Assembly (NCBI GenBank): GCA_048882505.1
Contig: JBHLRO010000005.1
Coordinates: 180,001-212,000, forward strand
DNA: 32,000 nucleotides
Origin: Candidatus Thorarchaeota archaeon
Lineage (GTDB): Archaea; Asgardarchaeota; Heimdallarchaeia; Hodarchaeales; Hodarchaeaceae
Direction of reading: 5' to 3'
Notes under the pieces: model-generated
Databases searched by the model: none
What the model was told of the DNA's origin: nothing
Seen by the model: only the letters and a program-made list of their open reading frames with translations
Shown: positions 2 to 30,837 of the stretch, piece after piece
Layout: the number at the start of each line of letters is the position of its first letter
Numbering within the stretch: the first letter of the stretch is position 1
Made by a program: the position numbers and the translations under genes

Positions 2-442
2 CTCTTCCCGGCTCGAGGGTAGTTTTCCTTTTGCTAAATCCTCTTTATTGCCTATTACTATGATTTTTGCCGAGGGGCTTTGCTCCTGAACATCTTTACG
101 CCAGCGTTCTAATTTTTTGTAAGTTTCGTCAATGCGCGTGAGATCAAATACCAAAAACACACCTTGGGCCTTCTTCAGGTAGAGATGTCGGAAGTTTGTA
201 AATCCTGACTGGCCAGCAACATCCCAAATCTGAAAGGATAGTTCTCGATCCTCGCCAGTCTTCGGATCCTGAAGAATCACGGTCTTCGAGAGGAAATCAA
301 CTCCCAAAGTGATTTGGTAACCTTCTTTGAAGAAATCATCAACGTACCTCTTTATTAAACTTGTTTTTCCAACTTCGGGCTCCCCTACCAAAAGCAATTT
401 AAAACTATATTTTGGGGTTTTACCTTTCTTACTCTTGACCAA
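2..442 (-). CDS. Rab-like small GTPase (3' end runs off the window start)
   Basis: Manual translation, absent from the ORF track: (M)VKSKKGKTPKYSFKLLLVGEPEVGKTSLIKRYVDDFFKEGYQITLGVDF...FQIWDVAGQSGF...GVFLVFDLT...IVIGNKED. G1 GEPEVGKT, G2 Thr, G3 WDVAGQ and G4 NKED are present, with RabF-like LGVDF and LVFDLT. TTG start at 442 has GGAG upstream. Confidence 0.93.
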   Translation of the reverse strand, partial: MVKSKKGKTPKYSFKLLLVGEPEVGKTSLIKRYVDDFFKEGYQITLGVDFLSKTVILQDPKTGEDRELSFQIWDVAGQSGFTNFRHLYLKKAQGVFLVFDLTRIDETYKKLERWRKDVQEQSPSAKIIVIGNKEDLAKGKLPSSREE

Positions 443-822: not shown

Positions 823-3426
823 ATGACTAAATGGGAGTTTTCATTCAAACTTGAGGCGGATGATCGTTCAGCAGCAAAAAAATTCCAGATTATGGTTAGT
901 TCCATTGTGGAACCCGCGGTCCATATCCCTAATTTCCCTAAGGATAAATTATTACGAGCATTGAATGTTCACAGCACCAAGAATGAATATGAATTGTATA
1001 AAGGGATAATTTCAGATCTCAAAATCAAAAAAACCAATGCTTTGGATTCCTCAAAGGAAATCCACGTCCTAATGTTAGTTTTGGAGAAAATTGGGCCGAT
1101 TACATTGGTTTTTAGTAATAAGTTTGAATATTTGGTGCTCGAAGGTATTGATTCTGCCTATGAGTACATCGGTCATGCCGCATTATTGAACATCCTTATT
1201 CAAATAATCAATCCACAGTCCCAAACAGTTAGTGGGCTAGGTAAGATCAAGACAATTTACCACGCTTCAAACTTGAACGCCTTAAAAAGATCCTTAGATT
1301 ATGTTCCTCTACTAGATACTCCAGAGGGGCAGATCCTTCTGTTGGGAATTTCCTTTCTAGTTCCTCTGGTCACCATAATCGTCCTCCCTGGACCGATTCT
1401 AGAGTCCACCACATTCTACCTTTTAATTTTGGGAGTCCTAGGGATCTTGTTTTGCCTGTTCCCCTTCTTTAAAAGATCTAGCCGATACCTATCTGTTTCA
1501 CTTATATCCACAATTGTCCTATACATTTTTGTTGAAGTTATCATATCTTTCCATTTCCTGGTTGAAGGTAGAAACCCCTGGGGGATATTTAACAGCATCG
1601 CTCGATTGGACCTAATTGGAAATCTAAAAAGGCAAACATTAATCCAATCAGCCGGCCAGGGTGTGTTTTTAGGCCTTGAAATTCTTCAGATAGTTATTCC
1701 ATTCTTGGACTTGGTGTTTTTGGCGATAATACCACTCACAATCGGTCTATTTCTTACGCTATCAGTTCAAAAAACCGAAAACACCAGGCGATTAGTTAAA
1801 GCAGGAAGGATCTTTGCGGTTTTATTCTTCATTGTCTCATTGTTGACTCTACCTATAGTCTATCATGCGCTAGGGAAAGGAACAGAAGGAACCATCTATG
1901 CAAGTATTGGACTTGTCGAAACCGCAGAGATGTTTTCTCCGAGATTCGTAAAAAATCTTGAATCAAATCTGGCTGAACTTCAGGAACTGATTGATTCTGC
2001 GAAAGGTCACCTAGAAAAAGCGGGAAACTCCTTTCAGCAGTTTGGTGAAAATCCACTTATATCTGTTGTACTGCCCTATTTTTTCCCGAGCGTTGCAGGG
2101 ATCCCTCTAGATCAAATCCCGAACATTCTGAATTTAACCCATGATCTTGGTGAGGCCGTTCCATTTTACTTGAATTTTCTTTGGGCTTATTTTAGTTTTG
2201 AGCGAGGGTTCAATCAATCTTTTCAAATACTTTCGGAAACTATTTCAGGGCAGAACTTGGGTTTCGGTGCCCAAGAAAACCAGAGATACAACCAATCCAT
2301 GCTCGGAGCCCTCCGTATTCTACAATTAGGTCTTCAGAATCTTACTTTTGCGGAAGAAAATCTCCTACCAAGACTCAGCAGTGCACGAGAGACTTTAAAC
2401 TTTCCAACCTTCCAAGAAATCGGAAATTTCCTTTCTGAACTTGAACTGGGACTCCCAATCCTCGTTTCAGTCATAACTGCTGCGATTCCATGGACGAACT
2501 CGACCTATAAGCTGACACTCGCTCTGGAAAATCTAGATCAATCTCGATTTTCTAATCTGAACGAAATAGAAAATGCTGAATCTGATTACGTTCTTTCACA
2601 GATGGCACTTCAAGATATAGAAATTGAGGAGTTGGGCCTTCCTACTCAAGCGGCTTCGATTTTACCCATCCGTGAGCTTTATAATTTCAGTGAAGGTCTT
2701 CATTCGGTTACAGGTAAGTATCTTCTGGCTGTTAAAAACGCAACTTTTATGTTTCAAGCATTTAATACAACATTGCGAGAGATCCAAGCAATAGATTTTG
2801 CTAATGCTAGTAATATTGCCGACCCTAAATGGCAAAGGGTGGATGAAAGTATGACTAATACATCCTCATATTTGAACGCAACACAATCAAGTTTAGATGA
2901 TATGGAGGAAGTAATCAGTCAATTAAATCTAAATGTACTTAGTGACCTAATAGATGTCTCTCAGCTGTTACAAGAACTAAATAGTTTTACTCAATCAACC
3001 TCAAATAGGTTGGATGTAATTAATACTTACTTTAACGCGTTTGAAACGACCTTTGAATCGATAAATTACTTTTCATTAGGTTCGAATAGTTTGAACGCTA
3101 GTATGACCACTAGTTTAGGGCCTCCGGCCACTTCAGGCAATTATACTCAAGCAAGACAAAACTTTACCCTCAGTCAGGTGGCTGCAAATGAAACAGATTT
3201 AACTTTGGCTGGTATCTCAAACCACCTCTTGAACGATACAGCGATTTCTAACTGGCGAGAACTTGTCAAGGGCGGCGTTAATTCCGTTTATAATTTGGCG
3301 GAAAGAAGTTTGAGTGTTATCGATGCTATCGAAGCAAACGGCTCGATTACAACAGTAACGCATGTAGGTGATTTCGCGCTGATACTAGTTGATATGGAAA
3401 GTTTAGATTGGGATATTTTTGCTTGA
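823..3426 (+). CDS. Large multi-pass membrane protein with C-terminal helical, probably N-glycosylated ectodomain; function unknown
   Basis: 867-aa ORF. About 5 hydrophobic segments lie between aa ~170 and ~350. The amphipathic helical C-terminal ~500 aa carry 17 N-x-S/T sequons, against none in the first 350 aa. Confidence 0.75.
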   Translation: MTKWEFSFKLEADDRSAAKKFQIMVSSIVEPAVHIPNFPKDKLLRALNVHSTKNEYELYKGIISDLKIKKTNALDSSKEIHVLMLVLEKIGPITLVFSNKFEYLVLEGIDSAYEYIGHAALLNILIQIINPQSQTVSGLGKIKTIYHASNLNALKRSLDYVPLLDTPEGQILLLGISFLVPLVTIIVLPGPILESTTFYLLILGVLGILFCLFPFFKRSSRYLSVSLISTIVLYIFVEVIISFHFLVEGRNPWGIFNSIARLDLIGNLKRQTLIQSAGQGVFLGLEILQIVIPFLDLVFLAIIPLTIGLFLTLSVQKTENTRRLVKAGRIFAVLFFIVSLLTLPIVYHALGKGTEGTIYASIGLVETAEMFSPRFVKNLESNLAELQELIDSAKGHLEKAGNSFQQFGENPLISVVLPYFFPSVAGIPLDQIPNILNLTHDLGEAVPFYLNFLWAYFSFERGFNQSFQILSETISGQNLGFGAQENQRYNQSMLGALRILQLGLQNLTFAEENLLPRLSSARETLNFPTFQEIGNFLSELELGLPILVSVITAAIPWTNSTYKLTLALENLDQSRFSNLNEIENAESDYVLSQMALQDIEIEELGLPTQAASILPIRELYNFSEGLHSVTGKYLLAVKNATFMFQAFNTTLREIQAIDFANASNIADPKWQRVDESMTNTSSYLNATQSSLDDMEEVISQLNLNVLSDLIDVSQLLQELNSFTQSTSNRLDVINTYFNAFETTFESINYFSLGSNSLNASMTTSLGPPATSGNYTQARQNFTLSQVAANETDLTLAGISNHLLNDTAISNWRELVKGGVNSVYNLAERSLSVIDAIEANGSITTVTHVGDFALILVDMESLDWDIFA

Positions 3427-5068: not shown

Positions 5069-6157
5069 TCAAAGACCTTCCATCCAATCCAGAAACTTGG
5101 CAGACAAATGCTTCAGAACGAGTTCCCGTATTAAAGGATTTCTCTGAGCGCTAATCTCCGCGGCAATCTCTACTAGGTCACGATCATTTGTTTCTTTAAT
5201 AATCTGAAGGCTCCGGTCTCGTTCTTCTTCGGATTGTGAAAAAGCATCAGTCAATTGGTTAGCAACTTGTAGGATATCATTGATAGCTGCATCAACAATT
5301 TCTAGTTGACGATTACGATTACGACGTAACTGCTTTATAAGTTTCCTTGAAAACGGGCATGACTTCCCGTTCCTGACCAGATTTTTTTTCGTATCCACGA
5401 GTATTTCTTGAGGGAAGTGTTTGACCAAACCTTGGGGAATACCAATGATATCCGCTTGGTGCGGATCAATCAGTTGAGTAGAGTAACCAACCTTTCTAAG
5501 GGCTTGGTGAGGCGCAAACAAACTCAGGCTATGGACGATAAGCTCAACAATGGCACCAGAATCTCCCGTCACAAATATGGGTTCGCCACGTAATAATCCC
5601 CCTACGGCTCGATCCTCGTTCTTTTTCACTTGTGCAAGAAAGAATTCAATACTACTTCCATCGCGTTTTTCAGATATGGTTACACGGCGCTCAACAATTT
5701 CTATCTCGGCCACAGCTTCTTTTTCTGTGATTTTCCAATTGCTCAATAAGCTGGCCAGTTGAGGAGGTAACGTCGCGTTACCAGTATAGACAAATTGCTG
5801 CTTTATTTGGTTAGCGATTTCCTCAGCCTTAAATTTAAGGAAAGGTACTTTATTGTAGAGAAATACCTGTTGATCTTGGGGCACCAAATAGCTAATAGAG
5901 GCAACACACCTTGGATTATTCGGATCCGCTTGTGAAATCTGAAACAAAAGAATGAATGCAATCTTCTCGAGCTTTGAAAAGGGCAAAATGGCTTCAGCAC
6001 TTTCTAAATCAGCGGAAGACATCATTGCCAATGTCATTTGAGAGCGCAAAGCGATTTGAGTTGCTTTTTCTGAAGTTAGATTTTTACCCTCGTAGAACAA
6101 TGGAATTGCCCCTCTTTTTTTGTCATACACGCTGAACAAAACGGTCCGATCCATCAT
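5069..6157 (-). CDS. DENN-domain-like protein (uDENN/longin + cDENN + helical dDENN), C9orf72-like
   Basis: aa 1-125 longin-like (VLFSVYDKKRGAIPL...RCVASISYLVPQDQQVF). aa 185-262 cDENN-like (GLLRGEPIFVTGDSGAIVELIVHSLSLF...DIIGI...ILVDTKKNLV). Helical C-terminus. GGTGA RBS before ATG. Assignment is by pattern match to remembered sequences. Confidence 0.65.
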   Translation of the reverse strand: MMDRTVLFSVYDKKRGAIPLFYEGKNLTSEKATQIALRSQMTLAMMSSADLESAEAILPFSKLEKIAFILLFQISQADPNNPRCVASISYLVPQDQQVFLYNKVPFLKFKAEEIANQIKQQFVYTGNATLPPQLASLLSNWKITEKEAVAEIEIVERRVTISEKRDGSSIEFFLAQVKKNEDRAVGGLLRGEPIFVTGDSGAIVELIVHSLSLFAPHQALRKVGYSTQLIDPHQADIIGIPQGLVKHFPQEILVDTKKNLVRNGKSCPFSRKLIKQLRRNRNRQLEIVDAAINDILQVANQLTDAFSQSEEERDRSLQIIKETNDRDLVEIAAEISAQRNPLIRELVLKHLSAKFLDWMEGL

Positions 6158-11568: not shown

Positions 11569-12735
11569 TTATGGAATATAGGTATATAGGGCAAAATCAA
11601 TTCTCTCTCCATCCCTACCCAAAAGGGTATGATACTCAATACTTGGCAGTTTCTCAAAAGCTATAACAACCTCGATCTTGCCTATCCTTTCCATTCCCAG
11701 AGACTTAGTTCTATGAAATGCGTATATGGAAAGACGTGGCGGATTCGGATCATCTAGGGGAAAATAAGACGCAAATACCACCATGGGGACCTGGGGAATG
11801 AAGGCTTCTTTGGAACTAGGAAAATGAATTAAACCTCTTTGAGGATATTTCTGCGTCACGCGGTTCTTGAAGTGGATTCTAAGAAATATCTGTTTATTAT
11901 AGGCGGTTAGGGTGAGTAATCTTATCTTGAATACGGCTACTTCAGGAATAAGAAAAGGACGAAGTAACCTGAAAATGGTTTTATGCCTAAGAACCCGTAA
12001 ATGCGTTAAACCAACTGTGATATTTATAGCATCGGAGAGTGGCACGAATTTCCTAGCAAGAGTTCCCGCTTGCCGTAATCTAATCCCTGGGTATTTCAAT
12101 GTCCCGATATTAACCAAAGTTAACCTGTAAAGTTCCTTTTCTGTTGTTTCTGCATTCATATCTTCAAGATAGTCAAGCTGCTGATTTATTTGGGAATCGC
12201 TAACTTCTAGGTTTCTTATATTAGCCAAAGTTCCTAAGTAGTTGGCTTTATGGTGAGGAGATTCTATCATCGCCAGTATACGTATGTTGCTATCGGCTCC
12301 AGCTATGAATTTTGAATAAAATCGGGCCGATAATCCACCAGAGGAGTTAGTAATCATTGAAATGCGGTACGCTTTCGTTATCTTCCTTATATCGGCAATT
12401 ACCTTCCCCAATTGCTCTGCGTTCTCAATAAAACTCAAGTTATTTGAGAAATCGATTGAAAAGATTAGGCGAAATCCGAAGTACCACAACTCGCGGGCCA
12501 GCCAATTGAAAATTCGGTGGTCCTTACCTATCCCATGGATCAATAGAACTGGCTCATAAAATCTTGATTTTGCGGGAGGAATATGCTTCCCTTTGGGATC
12601 CTCGTCCCAAAGATAAGAAAAACGCCATAAACGGAGTGATGAATCAATAGAAATCCAAAAGTGATCAAGTTTCGCCAACCGTTCTGTTTCAGGTGTGATG
12701 TCCTTAAATCGGGGCGGTTGAAACTGACGAGTCAA
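11569..12735 (-). CDS. Alpha/beta-hydrolase (lipase/esterase-like) fused to a beta-rich C2-like C-terminal domain
   Basis: PVLLIHG oxyanion motif, nucleophile elbow variant ITNSSGG, SPH motif and distal His (GLTHL). aa ~266-388 show alternating beta-strands. Confidence 0.7.
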   Translation of the reverse strand: MTRQFQPPRFKDITPETERLAKLDHFWISIDSSLRLWRFSYLWDEDPKGKHIPPAKSRFYEPVLLIHGIGKDHRIFNWLARELWYFGFRLIFSIDFSNNLSFIENAEQLGKVIADIRKITKAYRISMITNSSGGLSARFYSKFIAGADSNIRILAMIESPHHKANYLGTLANIRNLEVSDSQINQQLDYLEDMNAETTEKELYRLTLVNIGTLKYPGIRLRQAGTLARKFVPLSDAINITVGLTHLRVLRHKTIFRLLRPFLIPEVAVFKIRLLTLTAYNKQIFLRIHFKNRVTQKYPQRGLIHFPSSKEAFIPQVPMVVFASYFPLDDPNPPRLSIYAFHRTKSLGMERIGKIEVVIAFEKLPSIEYHTLLGRDGERIDFALYTYIP

Positions 12736-25981: not shown

Positions 25982-26776
25982 CTACAATCGTTGAATGGTA
26001 TTCCCCGAAATGAAAATTTTTCCTTTTTCGGCTTCTCCCTTTATAACGTCTTCAACAAGTCCAAAATCCAGTCCCTTATTCTGAGCGAGCTTTTTTAGTT
26101 TATTAAGAGTTATTGGCGAACTTCCAATTGAATTTAAAAACTCTTGGGCACTTGTTTTACCGTCAAATACTGATTTCAGGGTGGATTCGATTTCTTTTAT
26201 CTGATCATCCGTGAGAATGGCTTTCTTCCTTGCTCCGTCCGCCATCTGCTTAAAATCCTCCACTGGATCTTCTGAGCTTGTTCGAAAGAAACAGTCCGTG
26301 TGATAAAGGTTCTTTCCTAAAATCTGTCGGCCGTCAGGTAACTGCACCTCTCCTTCTCGTCGTACAACACGTATTATTCCCTTTTCTATCTTGGATCTAC
26401 ATTCATGGCATTTTCCTCTTCCACTTTTGGATATCTCAAAATAGGGTGGACGAGGTTTTAACTGTCCCTGATCCTGATAAGTTGAAATATCTTCAAGGTC
26501 TACTAGGGCTTGCTTTTTATCTGCAGCACTTAACATTGACAAGGGGATTATTTGAGTTCTAAGTTCATCTAAGTATTTTCTCATTTGATCAGGTAAAAGA
26601 CACCTTGGATGATAATATTGATAAGTTTGTATTTCCTGGCCGTTTCCTCTAGAGAAAGTTGATGGAATTCCAATCCTTACTGCCCCTTTTTCTATTTTCT
26701 CTCTGCATCCTCTGCATCCCGCCCGACCAGATTTTGAATATTCAACTAATGGAGAGCGTCCCGTTTCATCAGGCAT
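25982..26776 (-). CDS. Tandem PARP-type zinc-finger protein with probable C-terminal winged helix
   Basis: VEYSKSGRAGCRGCREKIEKG...YHPRC (C-x2-C-x31-H-x2-C) and FEISKSGRGKCHECRSKIEKG...YHTDC (C-x2-C-x32-H-x2-C). Start placed at ATG 26776 after a purine-rich RBS. Confidence 0.85.
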   Translation of the reverse strand: MPDETGRSPLVEYSKSGRAGCRGCREKIEKGAVRIGIPSTFSRGNGQEIQTYQYYHPRCLLPDQMRKYLDELRTQIIPLSMLSAADKKQALVDLEDISTYQDQGQLKPRPPYFEISKSGRGKCHECRSKIEKGIIRVVRREGEVQLPDGRQILGKNLYHTDCFFRTSSEDPVEDFKQMADGARKKAILTDDQIKEIESTLKSVFDGKTSAQEFLNSIGSSPITLNKLKKLAQNKGLDFGLVEDVIKGEAEKGKIFISGNTIQRL

Positions 26777-26873
26777 ATCAATCCCCCTTCTCTTCTCAAA
26801 TATAAGGATTTTCAAGGAGCTAAAAAGAAAAATTTATTGAATCATGAGTTCGGGACTGAGCGATTTTTTTGTT

Positions 26874-27824
26874 TTAGGAAAGCAGAATTATTCGGGAGGT
26901 TTCGAGGTTGTTTTCTGTGTCTTCTGGCTTTTTAGGGAATAGTTGGATTGAGGAAATGAACTTTTCTAGGTTATTCGAGATAAATGTCAGCATTTCGGAC
27001 TTCAGCGTATCAAAAGTATGCATCTCTGGAATTTTATATGTAAAGAAGACAAAAATCTTATCAAAACATTTAAAATGCCATATTACGCTAGAAGATAGCT
27101 GTTTGGATCCAATTAGGGTTTCAGATTTAAACTTCGAGCCTACATACTGTCTTTTTATATAATGAGATATAGCGGTTAAAAGCGGATCAGCTATATCAAC
27201 TTCTGGCTTTTTTGAAGTTGAAAAAAGGAATTTACCTTCATCATTGTAAACCAAAATGAACGATACGACATCAGTAAGATCCCTCTTGATTCGATCCAAA
27301 ACTCGCCAATAGATCGCTACATCTTCGCTTAAAGGTGCTACGACGGTTTTCTCAAAATTAACCTCCAAATTACCGAAGAGAAGCTCTCGTACGTCGTCTT
27401 TTAGGGGAGAAATCTGCTTTAAGAGCGAAATCGGTAGCTGTTGAAAATCTGGGGAAGTTGAGAGGCTGATTAGCGATATTCCCTGTTTTGTCTTCGCATA
27501 ATCCAGGTACAAAGGTTCTTTATCCCTTTTATCACCCGCAACCTTAATGATTATGGGACTTACAATTTCCTTTAGCTGCATAATGGCTTCAATCAATCCC
27601 GACATCAGGAGGATGTTTTCATTGGATGATGAGATTTCTAAATCCAAATCCTCGATTCTACCATTCCACTCATTTATGTGAATACCTCGAGTAAATATTG
27701 GCAAGCCGCCCTCGTCGGAAAGAATGACCAAGATACTGTTTCCTCTTAAAGATGAGGAGGCACGAAGGATTTCCGCTTTTTCCTCGTGGAACCATTCTCC
27801 AATGGAAATAATCCTGTCTTCCAA
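26874..27824 (-). CDS. Protein with two tandem longin/roadblock-like domains
   Basis: Internal repeat ILVILSDEGGLPIFT...SGLIEAIMQL versus FILVYNDEGKFLFST...DPLLTAISHY, matching the beta-hairpin plus helix start of longin-like folds. GGAGG RBS before TTG. Confidence 0.6.
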   Translation of the reverse strand: MEDRIISIGEWFHEEKAEILRASSSLRGNSILVILSDEGGLPIFTRGIHINEWNGRIEDLDLEISSSNENILLMSGLIEAIMQLKEIVSPIIIKVAGDKRDKEPLYLDYAKTKQGISLISLSTSPDFQQLPISLLKQISPLKDDVRELLFGNLEVNFEKTVVAPLSEDVAIYWRVLDRIKRDLTDVVSFILVYNDEGKFLFSTSKKPEVDIADPLLTAISHYIKRQYVGSKFKSETLIGSKQLSSSVIWHFKCFDKIFVFFTYKIPEMHTFDTLKSEMLTFISNNLEKFISSIQLFPKKPEDTENNLETSRIILLS

Positions 27825-27983: not shown

Positions 27984-29003
27984 TTACATAAATCCTCTTT
28001 CTAAGAGCTGATTCCATGTGATTTGGCCGAAGAGATATAAAAATTCTTGAAATGTGATCAGCGGACGGTTATATCTAATGATGTCATCCAAAGCTATACG
28101 GGGACAAGCTGTGTTTACCCAGGCATCAATCCATGTGAAATTAGCCAGATACGAAGGCGTTATTGTTTTTCCCACTAGTTCAACAAACGTAAATTTTGTT
28201 TCACTTAGTATCCTGGAGGCACGCTTATGGGGATTTGGTTGCCATTGTCCATGCTTAAGGCTGCTTACTATTCCCCAGGTTGTCGCCTTTCGTGCCTTCT
28301 CAATTACCGCAAACCGCTTTTTGATCAGTGCATTCCTTTCTGAGATTGTGTACAATGATAGATCACCAGTGAAGGGATCAATCTGAAGGATCGGCCAAGA
28401 AGTTAAGAAAAGCAAGGCTCTTGTATGGAAATTTCCTGGGTGAAGACTAACGATACCGTCAATATCGTTGGCTCCGAATTCGGTCTTTGATTTGCCAATG
28501 TAACAACCCAAAATTTGCCCACCTTGCTGAGAAATGGTAGATTCGATTTGATGTGCTTCGAACTGATGTTTTATGTTGTGTAAATACATCATATGCTGAG
28601 CGGTGGCAGTTAATCCCACTTTTTTCCAATTTAGCTCTCTAATCTTGTTAATTATTTTTGGGAAGTCAATTCGATAATTCTCAATGCGAGCAGGAACCAA
28701 TACCACATCTATCATATTTTCAGCACTGTGTACCCGCTGTTCAAAACCAAAGGAAGTGTGACCATAATGGATTAAGGCATCTACCTCCAGTTCAATCGCT
28801 GTATCAACCGCAAGATCACAAACTCCATAAGATGGCTCACCTTCCACAAATACGGTAATATTCAGTGCCTTTAATGCCGAGAGAACTTCTTGGAGAGGAT
28901 GATTCAACATCCCCTCTGGCATCTGGACAAGGACTCTATTCCATCCCTTATTTTGAATAGTCTTCGTTAATGAAGGAATGTCGAGGTCATAATCGATTTT
29001 CAC
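27984..29003 (-). CDS. dph2: Diphthamide biosynthesis enzyme Dph2 (radical-SAM-type, 4Fe-4S)
   Basis: VLVQMPEG, YGVCD, IHYGH, GQILGC and NTACPRI supply the three cluster-ligating Cys. Start moved to GTG 29003; the track's extension to 29225 overlaps the divergent gene. Confidence 0.9.
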   Translation of the reverse strand: MKIDYDLDIPSLTKTIQNKGWNRVLVQMPEGMLNHPLQEVLSALKALNITVFVEGEPSYGVCDLAVDTAIELEVDALIHYGHTSFGFEQRVHSAENMIDVVLVPARIENYRIDFPKIINKIRELNWKKVGLTATAQHMMYLHNIKHQFEAHQIESTISQQGGQILGCYIGKSKTEFGANDIDGIVSLHPGNFHTRALLFLTSWPILQIDPFTGDLSLYTISERNALIKKRFAVIEKARKATTWGIVSSLKHGQWQPNPHKRASRILSETKFTFVELVGKTITPSYLANFTWIDAWVNTACPRIALDDIIRYNRPLITFQEFLYLFGQITWNQLLERGFM

Positions 29004-29068
29004 GCTGTTTTCATCCACTATTCCGTCTAAATACAACCGAGGGGGAAAAAAATTATAAGAGTGATTTA

Positions 29069-30010
29069 GTGAAACCGGAAATCGTGTTGGATACCTTACT
29101 TGAATCAGCTGGAATTGTCTCAGAAGGTCAACGGATAAAACTGCTTTGTGCCCCAGACTACATTTTTTTTCGAACACATAGTCATATGCTCTATCGAGAG
29201 TTTCGTGGTATCCCCAAGTACTCAATTATTACCCGAAAAATTACGGAAAAAAGCTACAATTGGAAAACAACACCGAAAGAATGCTCTTTAAAGTCTCTCT
29301 ATATCATTGACGGTTCCACAGGTCTTAAGACAGCCCCTTTTTTCTTTCAATTGGCAAGCCATTTAAGAATTTCTATTGTTGGATCAAACATCAACTTTTT
29401 TGTCCTTCCCCGGCTAAGATTCGAAAGTGCTTCAAATCCTAAACTGGTCTTCAAACCTTATCATCCATATTATCTCATTAGCAGTCATCTTCATAGGCAT
29501 AAGCCGGTAGATGATAGGGGATTGGAAACAAAGGCAGTCATACTTCCACCCTCCTCTCAGCTGTTCCTAGAAGAAGAGAACTCGGTTCCGCCCAAAAACG
29601 CGATAGCTATCGGGGCTACTGGTGACGTGAGCGACTTCTTTCCAACCTCATTTGATATTTTGAGAGTAAATTTAGGTGATCTGATCGAATACGATCAACA
29701 CCTCGATTTAGGTGCGAATCTAAGGGAACAGATATTAAATAAGCTCGAGCTCCTAATCTCGGCCTTTAATATTCCCTGCGTGCTTGTTTCAGTTTATAAA
29801 ATTGCAAAGTTCCTGAACTCCCTGGGCGGTAAAAGCTCAGTTGCTTCGCAGATGGCTAGGGTTCAAGAAATATGCAATTCATGGAGATTTTCAGAAGTTC
29901 TTCTCGTAAATAATGAGAAACGAAGGATTTGGGATTTGATTTCTCTACATACGCTCCCTGAGGTATATGACAAGTACGCTTACCTAGTTTTCTTCAATCC
30001 CTCGAAATGA
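29069..30010 (+). CDS. Hypothetical protein; possibly a degenerate metallo-beta-lactamase/beta-CASP fold
   Basis: In-frame GTG 29069 with GAGTGA upstream. Weak motif echoes: DYIFFRTHSHMLY (cf. HxHxDH), AIGATG (cf. TGW) and YDQHLD (cf. SDHAD). Confidence 0.45.
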   Translation: MKPEIVLDTLLESAGIVSEGQRIKLLCAPDYIFFRTHSHMLYREFRGIPKYSIITRKITEKSYNWKTTPKECSLKSLYIIDGSTGLKTAPFFFQLASHLRISIVGSNINFFVLPRLRFESASNPKLVFKPYHPYYLISSHLHRHKPVDDRGLETKAVILPPSSQLFLEEENSVPPKNAIAIGATGDVSDFFPTSFDILRVNLGDLIEYDQHLDLGANLREQILNKLELLISAFNIPCVLVSVYKIAKFLNSLGGKSSVASQMARVQEICNSWRFSEVLLVNNEKRRIWDLISLHTLPEVYDKYAYLVFFNPSK

Positions 30011-30300: not shown

Positions 30301-30837
30301 ATGAGCGATGAACCCCTGGAAATAGATGAGATTATTCCTACAATTGAGAGAGTTAAATCTACTCTCATGCTACAAAACGAGAAACTTCTAAATATGAGAA
30401 AGGAACTAGAAGCGAAAGAAACAGAAATTGAGATTAAAGAAAAGGAAATCGCAGCACGGGAAAAGGCGCTTGAGGAAGCTCATTTACGTCGCCAACAGCT
30501 CGAATTTGACTATATGAATCTAGAGAACGAGCTCAAAAAGATCTCCGAACTGTATCAAGAAATGACTGGTAGAGAGGAGGCATCATTAGATGTCAAACAG
30601 TTACTCGGGATCTACATTGCCCTCTTAGAAAAGGTTTTCGCGGGTCAGCCCCATGCGAAGATCCTCTACCTACTTCACGGCGATAAATCAGAAATGACGC
30701 GTGAAGAGCTTACCAAGGCGAGTGGAGTTTCCGCAGCTATAGTACTTCACTCGATCCATGAACTTCATCGGGCGGAGCTTGTAACGTGGGATGAAGAAGC
30801 TGGGCTTGTGCAGTTAACAAATCGTATTTTTGAATAG
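30301..30837 (+). CDS. Coiled-coil protein with C-terminal winged helix-turn-helix
   Basis: E/K-rich heptad region at aa ~15-90. HAKILYLLH...MTREELTKASGVSAAIVLHSIHELHRAELVTWD...VQL is a wHTH pattern. Confidence 0.8.
   Translation: MSDEPLEIDEIIPTIERVKSTLMLQNEKLLNMRKELEAKETEIEIKEKEIAAREKALEEAHLRRQQLEFDYMNLENELKKISELYQEMTGREEASLDVKQLLGIYIALLEKVFAGQPHAKILYLLHGDKSEMTREELTKASGVSAAIVLHSIHELHRAELVTWDEEAGLVQLTNRIFE

Follow-up and report, generated by a model that had tools for sequence, protein, structure and literature searches.

An enzyme-free tandem PARP-type zinc finger protein with an MCM-derived tail in Heimdallarchaeia

In eukaryotes, zinc fingers of the PARP1 type are first responders to DNA strand breaks. 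Human PARP1 carries two of them at its N-terminus (Zn1-Zn2, or F1F2; structures 2n8a, 4av1, 3od8 and 3odc), both CCHC fingers and joined by a short flexible linker, together with Zn3/PADR1, BRCT, WGR and ART domains. Break sensors of the zf-PARP family are also found outside the PARP enzymes, as the finger of DNA ligase III (1uw0) and the fingers of the plant 3'-phosphatase ZDP, the name that P0020 bears, in each case fused to a repair enzyme, and stand-alone tandem zf-PARP proteins with two fingers and no enzyme occur in bacteria. The phosphate backbone is gripped in PARP1 by R18 and R122 (PMC8150716). A standard survey reported no PARP in archaea (PMC4245714), and no paper dealing with zf-PARP in the Asgard group, or in archaea generally, came up in a full-text literature search; one 319-aa entry of AlphaFold DB already bears the label 'PARP-type domain-containing protein' from automatic annotation. 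The module type itself is known; new here is the occurrence of an MCM-derived tail on an enzyme-free tandem zf-PARP protein, which had previously gone unnoticed.

The window, that is, the whole stretch of 32,000 nucleotides that was analysed, is part of a 4.3-Mb assembly that is 94.5% complete and whose host is a relative of the Heimdallarchaeota (Asgard, Heimdall group). The ORF at 25982-26776 on the minus strand begins with ATG and encodes a protein of 264 aa, with the following features.

25982..26776, minus strand: whole gene, 264 codons and stop, encoding zf-PARP, zf-PARP, linker helix and MCM-type winged helix
26783..26787, minus strand: Shine-Dalgarno-like GGGGG run (putative role), 7-11 nt 5' of the ATG
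26489..26755, minus strand: finger 1, residues 8-96, with ligands C21, C24, H56 and C59 and with R18 as the backbone grip
26453..26488, minus strand: flexible linker, residues 97-108, pLDDT about 60
26192..26452, minus strand: finger 2, residues 109-195, with ligands C123, C126, H159 and C162
25985..26167, minus strand: tail, residues 204-264, an acidic linker helix and a truncated winged helix

The gene could be longer, starting with TTG at 26815; 17 of 17 orthologs align from the ATG-encoded Met onward. By sequence comparison the gene is under purifying selection, with a dN/dS of 0.14 against an ortholog of 87% identity (L014) that is carried by a 'Candidatus Heimdallarchaeota archaeon' MAG. 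It is present in 19 of the 21 genomes of the genus, and the two genomes without it are 71% and 83% complete. Identity to most of the orthologs is 30-37%, compared with 79-84% for Orc1/Cdc6, and the protein is therefore fast-evolving; despite this, the eight zinc ligands as well as R18, R34, R120, R136, L146 and R150 are invariant across 17 orthologs. No NCBIfam model matched the protein, and word-based searches returned only three near-length homologs of finger-finger-tail architecture and, as longer homologs, only eukaryotic PARP1-like proteins. The gene is genuine and conserved, and its product is a tandem zf-PARP protein of Heimdallarchaeia that carries no enzyme.

The sequence-only reading had described two complete CCHC fingers, an observation that is confirmed far beyond chance. 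The Pfam family zf-PARP (PF00645) matches the protein in two stretches with an E value of 6.4e-26 and a score of 91.4 bits (curated cut-off 39.3), and in the search at genome level finger 1 scored 59.5 bits and finger 2 scored 36.3 bits. The E-x-x-K-S-x-R openings (E12..R18 and E114..R120), both KIEKG segments and the closing helices listed in the same reading were all found. The Pfam stretch of finger 1 covers residues 12-88, with two closing helices, the genome-level match of finger 2 lies at window positions 26192-26437, and the ligand spacing of both fingers fits C-x2-C-x(about 28-32)-H-x2-C. A phmmer search of PDB sequences retrieved human PARP1 Zn1-Zn2 (2n8a, E 4e-13) and the LIG3 finger (1uw0, E 6e-8). 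The backbone-grip arginine is conserved with PARP1, R18 of the archaeal protein being aligned with both R18 and R122 of PARP1. Residue F41 in a loop of finger 1 is nearly invariant and lies 3 positions off the base-stacking F44 of PARP1 in the ungapped HMMER alignment. The cores of both fingers are basic, with mean net charges of +4.8 (finger 1) and +2.8 (finger 2). The base-stacking residues of Zn2 are given in PMC8150716 as L161/I164; by the numbering of 2n8a, L151 and I154 are the hydrophobic residues of the loop and positions 161/164 coincide with the last zinc ligand, and a slip of numbering in that source may be involved.

Structure prediction agreed with these assignments. Run on the single sequence, AlphaFold modelled the fingers poorly (pLDDT 43.6), and a model built on the 17-sequence ortholog alignment (pLDDT 84.6) was used instead. 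In this model, finger 1 occupies residues from about 8 to 96, a low-confidence linker 97-108 and finger 2 about 109-195, followed by a long acidic helix at 190-216 and a three-helix, two-strand winged helix at 217-264. The top Foldseek match of the model was PARP1 F1F2 (E 8e-10, probability 1.00). Alignment of model residues 5-97 by VIA-align gave Z 9.1 to PARP1 Zn1 (4opx) and 8.8 to Zn2 (3odc), and against the solved PARP1/LIG3-type fingers Z was 9.1, 9.0 and 8.8 with rmsd 2.6-3.1 A over 85-87 residues, these listed matches being those of finger 1 and the assignment of finger 2 being made by sequence.

Unlike PARP1, the protein has no Zn3/PADR1, BRCT, WGR or ART domain in its ORF; of the domains that characterise a PARP1-type polymerase, ART (PF00644) and WGR (PF05406) were not found, and zf-PARP is the only one there. 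Unlike DNA ligase III, it has no ATP-dependent ligase domain in the ORF, the winged helix being the sole module that accompanies the fingers, and the earlier statement that neither an ART nor a ligase domain lies in the ORF or nearby was borne out for every ORF in the window that reaches 100 aa. The search for partners was also extended to the whole 94.5%-complete genome, in which no PARP catalytic, WGR or macro domain was found; neither PF00644 nor PF05406 had a match, although the search with PF00644 is weak, its control having been silent in all control genomes. The sole ATP-dependent ligase of the genome (PF01068) is located on another contig. With none of these three domains found in the genome, the finger protein would work without an ADP-ribosylation set.

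Beyond the fingers, the sequence-only reading had noted a tail resembling a winged helix-turn-helix. A winged helix is indeed present, but not a generic one: on the evidence of profile comparison, the tail is a homolog of the winged helix at the C-terminus of the MCM that the same organism encodes, and this is the main new result. When a profile of the 17 ortholog tails (A2) was searched against the six frames of the genome, there was a single other match (E 1.7e-5), at the last 45 codons of a 731-aa ORF identified as MCM by the Pfam families MCM, MCM_OB, MCM_lid and MCM_N. In each of the 21 genus genomes a second long ORF is matched by the profile at its end (E as low as 4e-10), and the profile likewise matches several genomes of other Heimdall families that are without the finger-finger-tail protein. 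Ten of the second-ORF C-termini and the tail of the host's own MCM align together as MCM C-termini (alignment A4). With hhalign, A2 matched A4 at 97.4% (E 1e-11), the match spanning 62 columns from end to end, with the last residue reached in both alignments and the homology extending over the linker helix that precedes the winged helix; against the MCM of the genome itself, the tail profile matched at 95% (E 3.7e-8). A motif of the form G-x-hydrophobic-F-E-P-x-x-G is common to the ortholog tails and the MCM C-termini at the extreme C-terminus, and the shared F-E-P-x-P-G motif has been lost in the protein of the window and its two closest relatives. The tail differs from that of MCM in being joined to break-type fingers instead of an AAA+ helicase.

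The curated Pfam models of MCM winged helices yielded no significant match, with one of the 17 tails matching PF21120 (MCM_WH_arc) at E 0.017 and one matching PF25051 at 0.02, and the tail is therefore considered a divergent relative and not a member of the Pfam family. The tail profile had no match below E 0.1 among PDB sequences, a word-based search found no tail-only relatives, and a protein-atlas match to WHD_MCM (score 0.77) was taken as a lead only. In the model, tail residues 208-264 adopt a winged-helix fold at pLDDT 85-91. Its best structural match is the winged helix of Pyrococcus abyssi Rpa2 (9f27, 9f2a; Z 8.5, rmsd 1.6 A, 58 residues), followed among MCM winged helices by those of Sulfolobus and Methanothermobacter (2m45, Z 7.9; 2ma3, Z 7.7; rmsd 1.9-2.0 A, 57 residues). 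Because many other winged helices score in the same range (Z 7-8.5), fold alone does not decide the identity of the tail, and the values for Rpa2 and MCM are tied within 1; for the match to Rpa2, no counterpart was found at the level of sequence. In P. abyssi, the Rpa2 winged helix binds PolD and primase. The mean charge of the winged helix is +0.6 and that of its third helix about 0 (0.1), falling to -3 in the protein of the window, and the linker helix has a mean charge of -4.5.

A search with the Pfam zf-PARP model was positive in 94 of 301 Asgard genomes sampled, compared with 5 of 121 genomes of Myxococcota. The Asgard occurrences cover most Heimdall families and one large family outside the class, and no zf-PARP was found in three other Asgard families (0/68, 0/19 and 0/11 genomes). 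The following architectures were distinguished.

Finger-finger-MCM-like tail: confined to this genus, with about 13 representatives in 1.84 billion proteins
Finger-OB-finger-tail: P0010 (L031:5091-6215:+, G015), a positional ortholog with an Ssb-like OB fold (PF21473, E 2e-13) in the inter-finger linker
Finger-OB-like-finger: family f5, proteins of about 316 aa
Finger-OB: family f7
Finger and another winged helix: family f2
A 150-aa domain without known identity and one C-terminal finger: family f3 and the outside family f11

The order of OB fold and winged helix in the G015 ortholog recalls that of Rpa2. The Asgard single-finger proteins belong to the same finger family and the same phylum as the tandem protein, from which they differ in their one C-terminal finger and their other partner domain. 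A further Heimdall protein, of 619 aa (L046:3675-5531:+, G038), consists of an N-terminal zf-PARP followed by about 560 residues without a Pfam match. In bacteria, where isolated zf-PARP domains had been mentioned in the sequence-only reading, stand-alone tandem-finger proteins of about 180 aa were indeed found in Myxococcota and Planctomycetota, all without a winged-helix tail. Six larger proteins, 560-1330 aa in length (P0054, P0095, P0146, P0078, P0082 and P0141), carry tandem fingers of the bacterial type fused to repeats of the ankyrin, TPR, LRR or DKNYY kind, and no fusion of bacterial tandem fingers to a repair enzyme was found.

The fingers are best interpreted as a sensor of nicks or ends, and the protein as a whole may be a non-catalytic nick/gap sensor and adaptor coupled to replication factors, a function that is proposed tentatively, as something close to an even call. 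The binding of breaks, a protein-binding role for the tail and the identity of its partner are inferred. The two basic fingers would bind, independently of sequence, the exposed duplex ends that flank a nick or short gap, in the manner of PARP1 F1/F2, the flexible linker between them would allow the fingers to cooperate, and the OB fold that relatives have in their linker would take up the single-stranded part of a longer gap. The MCM-type winged helix, which is near neutral, and the acidic linker helix would bind a protein, so tethering the bound lesion to a replication factor, which could be Orc1/Cdc6, MCM or some other partner of the domain. Without any ADP-ribosylation, the sensing of breaks would thereby be coupled to helicase loading, restart or restraint. 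The winged helix of archaeal MCM is reported to contact Orc1 and to govern the ATPase and helicase of MCM (PMC11686378, citing Samson 2016; PMC4357721), and the ATPase of Sulfolobus MCM is modulated by the linker and winged helix (PMC4357721); it is these contacts that suggest a link from breaks to Orc1/Cdc6 or MCM. When the tail alignment (A2) was modelled in complex with the genome's main Orc1/Cdc6 (A3), the score was 0.18 and the mark 0.32, which is neutral with regard to binding.

Several observations count in favour of the nick/end-sensor reading: the grip arginine and zinc ligands are kept, the fold matches that of DNA-bound PARP1 fingers at Z about 9, the finger cores are basic where the winged helix is near neutral and its linker helix acidic, the tail is homologous to that of MCM, the gene is syntenic across most of its genus and under purifying selection, finger-OB-finger and finger-OB proteins exist in other Heimdall families, and support is gained from the ortholog P0010 because it has its Ssb-like OB fold between the fingers. 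Counting against it are the offset of F41 from F44, the loss of F-E-P-x-P-G in this protein, its fast evolution, its uninformative neighbours, and the joining of bacterial tandem fingers to repeats and not to repair enzymes.

The alternative that survives best, although it is considered unlikely, is a general DNA-binding architectural protein or transcription regulator, in which the winged helix would read duplex DNA and the fingers would add unspecific affinity, without any particular part in break sensing or replication. The winged helices of MarR, PadR and HxlR match the tail at Z 7.0-8.0, compared with 7.7-8.5 for MCM and Rpa2, no repair genes adjoin the finger gene, and PARP1 fingers bind undamaged DNA too (PMC6135609). 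Against this reading, the third (recognition) helix of the tail is not basic; the tail matches the MCM C-terminus in sequence, and no match to any regulator family was found at that level; the winged helices of archaeal MCM are truncated forms without wings (PMC4357721); and the OB insertion of P0010 points to single-stranded DNA.

It is a rather improbable alternative that the protein is a trans-acting regulator or decoy of the helicase, its tail competing with that of MCM for Orc1/Cdc6 or docking on the ATPase tier of MCM; in this reading the fingers would only place it on DNA, and helicase loading would be blocked or redirected. Homology between the tail and the C-terminal domain of MCM extends to the linker helix in front, and the reported effects of that linker and domain on the Sulfolobus ATPase, as well as the reported binding of the domain to Orc1, would suit a protein of this kind. 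The rapid divergence of the tail, against the 79-84% conservation of Orc1, would be unexpected for a strict mimic.

The origin of the fingers was examined with a tree of 95 single fingers (90 columns, LG+C20+F+G4), which is unrooted and based on a short alignment. Seven rows, namely both fingers of P0145, P0129 and P0049 and the finger of L046, were left out because four long branches had distorted the backbone of the first tree. The eukaryotic rows are PARP1 Zn1, PARP1 Zn2 and plant ZDP, with LIG3 and most of eukaryotic diversity absent, and ten rows are labelled bacterial only through being 34-53% identical to named proteins of bacteria. All eukaryotic fingers fall into a single clade (96/92), in which Zn1 and Zn2 of PARP1 pair as sisters (93/83); the Asgard single-finger family stands as sister to that clade (94/90), and the first fingers of the bacterial proteins come next (90/87). 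A separate clade (92/85) holds the second fingers of the bacterial proteins, of family f5 and of this genus. The suggestion of the sequence-only reading that the tandem might be an antecedent of the PARP1 Zn1-Zn2 module found no support, the eukaryotic clade standing beside the Asgard single fingers, even if an AU test of Heimdall second fingers grouped with PARP1 Zn2 gave p 0.19 and did not reject that grouping. From this topology, the prokaryotic tandem looks like a single old invention common to bacteria and Heimdallarchaeia, and the PARP1 finger pair looks like a later duplication within eukaryotes.

Horizontal transfer had been named as an alternative origin; a recent gain of a bacterial stand-alone tandem-finger gene, with no lineage-specific role, is very improbable: such genes exist in Myxococcota and Planctomycetota and their second fingers share a clade with those of Heimdall proteins, but the Heimdall fingers fall outside the bacterial clades and are not nested in them, the gene is found in an unchanged syntenic position at 19 genus loci with 30-37% identity and is under purifying selection, zf-PARP is far commoner in Asgard genomes than in Myxococcota, and the tail derives from an archaeal MCM.

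A broader scenario, put forward as speculation to which only a small probability is attached, would make Asgard archaea, and not bacteria, the main prokaryotic home of zf-PARP, would derive the fingers of PARP1, LIG3 and ZDP from an Asgard single-finger gene, and would have the finger combined, within Heimdallarchaeia, with OB folds and with a copied MCM tail to give an ADP-ribose-free break sensor that directly addresses the licensing and helicase machinery (Orc1/Cdc6-MCM). If true, this would amount to a primitive device coupling damage to replication in the lineage nearest to eukaryotes. The largest potential significance lies in the spread of the finger among Asgard archaea and its place in the tree next to the eukaryotic fingers. 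The combination of fingers and MCM tail suggests an unstudied link between break sensing and replication in the closest archaeal relatives of eukaryotes, and the MCM-derived tail makes the coupling of break sensing to a replication initiator or helicase a concrete, testable hypothesis. With its two fingers and no enzyme, the protein offers a simple system for the role of the finger module before its wiring to ADP-ribosylation, and it is small and should be suitable for expression for DNA-binding, pull-down and structural work.

The gene order in the 19 genus loci is Xer recombinase, two unknown genes, Dph2, a gene for a 316-aa protein, the finger gene, GDSL hydrolase and hydantoinase. The neighbourhood was rejected as a guide to function, since Dph2, the GDSL hydrolase and the 316-aa gene are syntenic only within the genus, and the neighbours of the finger genes of families f5, f7 and f2 are unrelated (MFS transporter, nitroreductase, DegV, NAD synthase and OTCase). 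The 316-aa protein, encoded at window positions 26874-27824 (minus strand) directly 5' of the finger gene, is kept in 18 of the 19 loci (identity about 51%) and matches no model of Pfam or NCBIfam. The Dph2 ORF at 27984-29225 (minus strand), with a TTG start, overlaps a divergent 346-aa ORF at 28970-30010 (plus strand) by about 255 nt; because orthologs cover only its last 81%, Dph2 probably starts further downstream, and an artefact of ORF calling is likely to account for the overlap. A 178-aa protein encoded at 30301-30837 (plus strand) is syntenic in 15 loci at about 60% identity, and has weak matches to ArsR/MarR-type HTH and SMC-related NCBIfam models, all below the cut-offs.

Elsewhere in the genome there are four paralogs of Orc1/Cdc6; the loci noted in this connection are L058:574-1827:+, L058:1884-3068:- and L061:514-1830:+. 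The best-scoring paralog is located back to back with an ORF that resembles, as read by eye, the small subunit of PolD, an arrangement suggesting that a replication origin may lie there, and another paralog is found about 3 kb upstream of the MCM gene. Long ORFs without a Pfam family are present in the window at 823-3426 (plus strand, 867 aa), 5069-6157 (minus strand, 362 aa) and 11569-12735 (minus strand, 388 aa). At 2-442 (minus strand), the edge of the window cuts the gene of a small GTPase of the Ras/Roc/Arf family (Pfam Ras, E 1e-31), and Ras-type small GTPases are typical of Asgard genomes.
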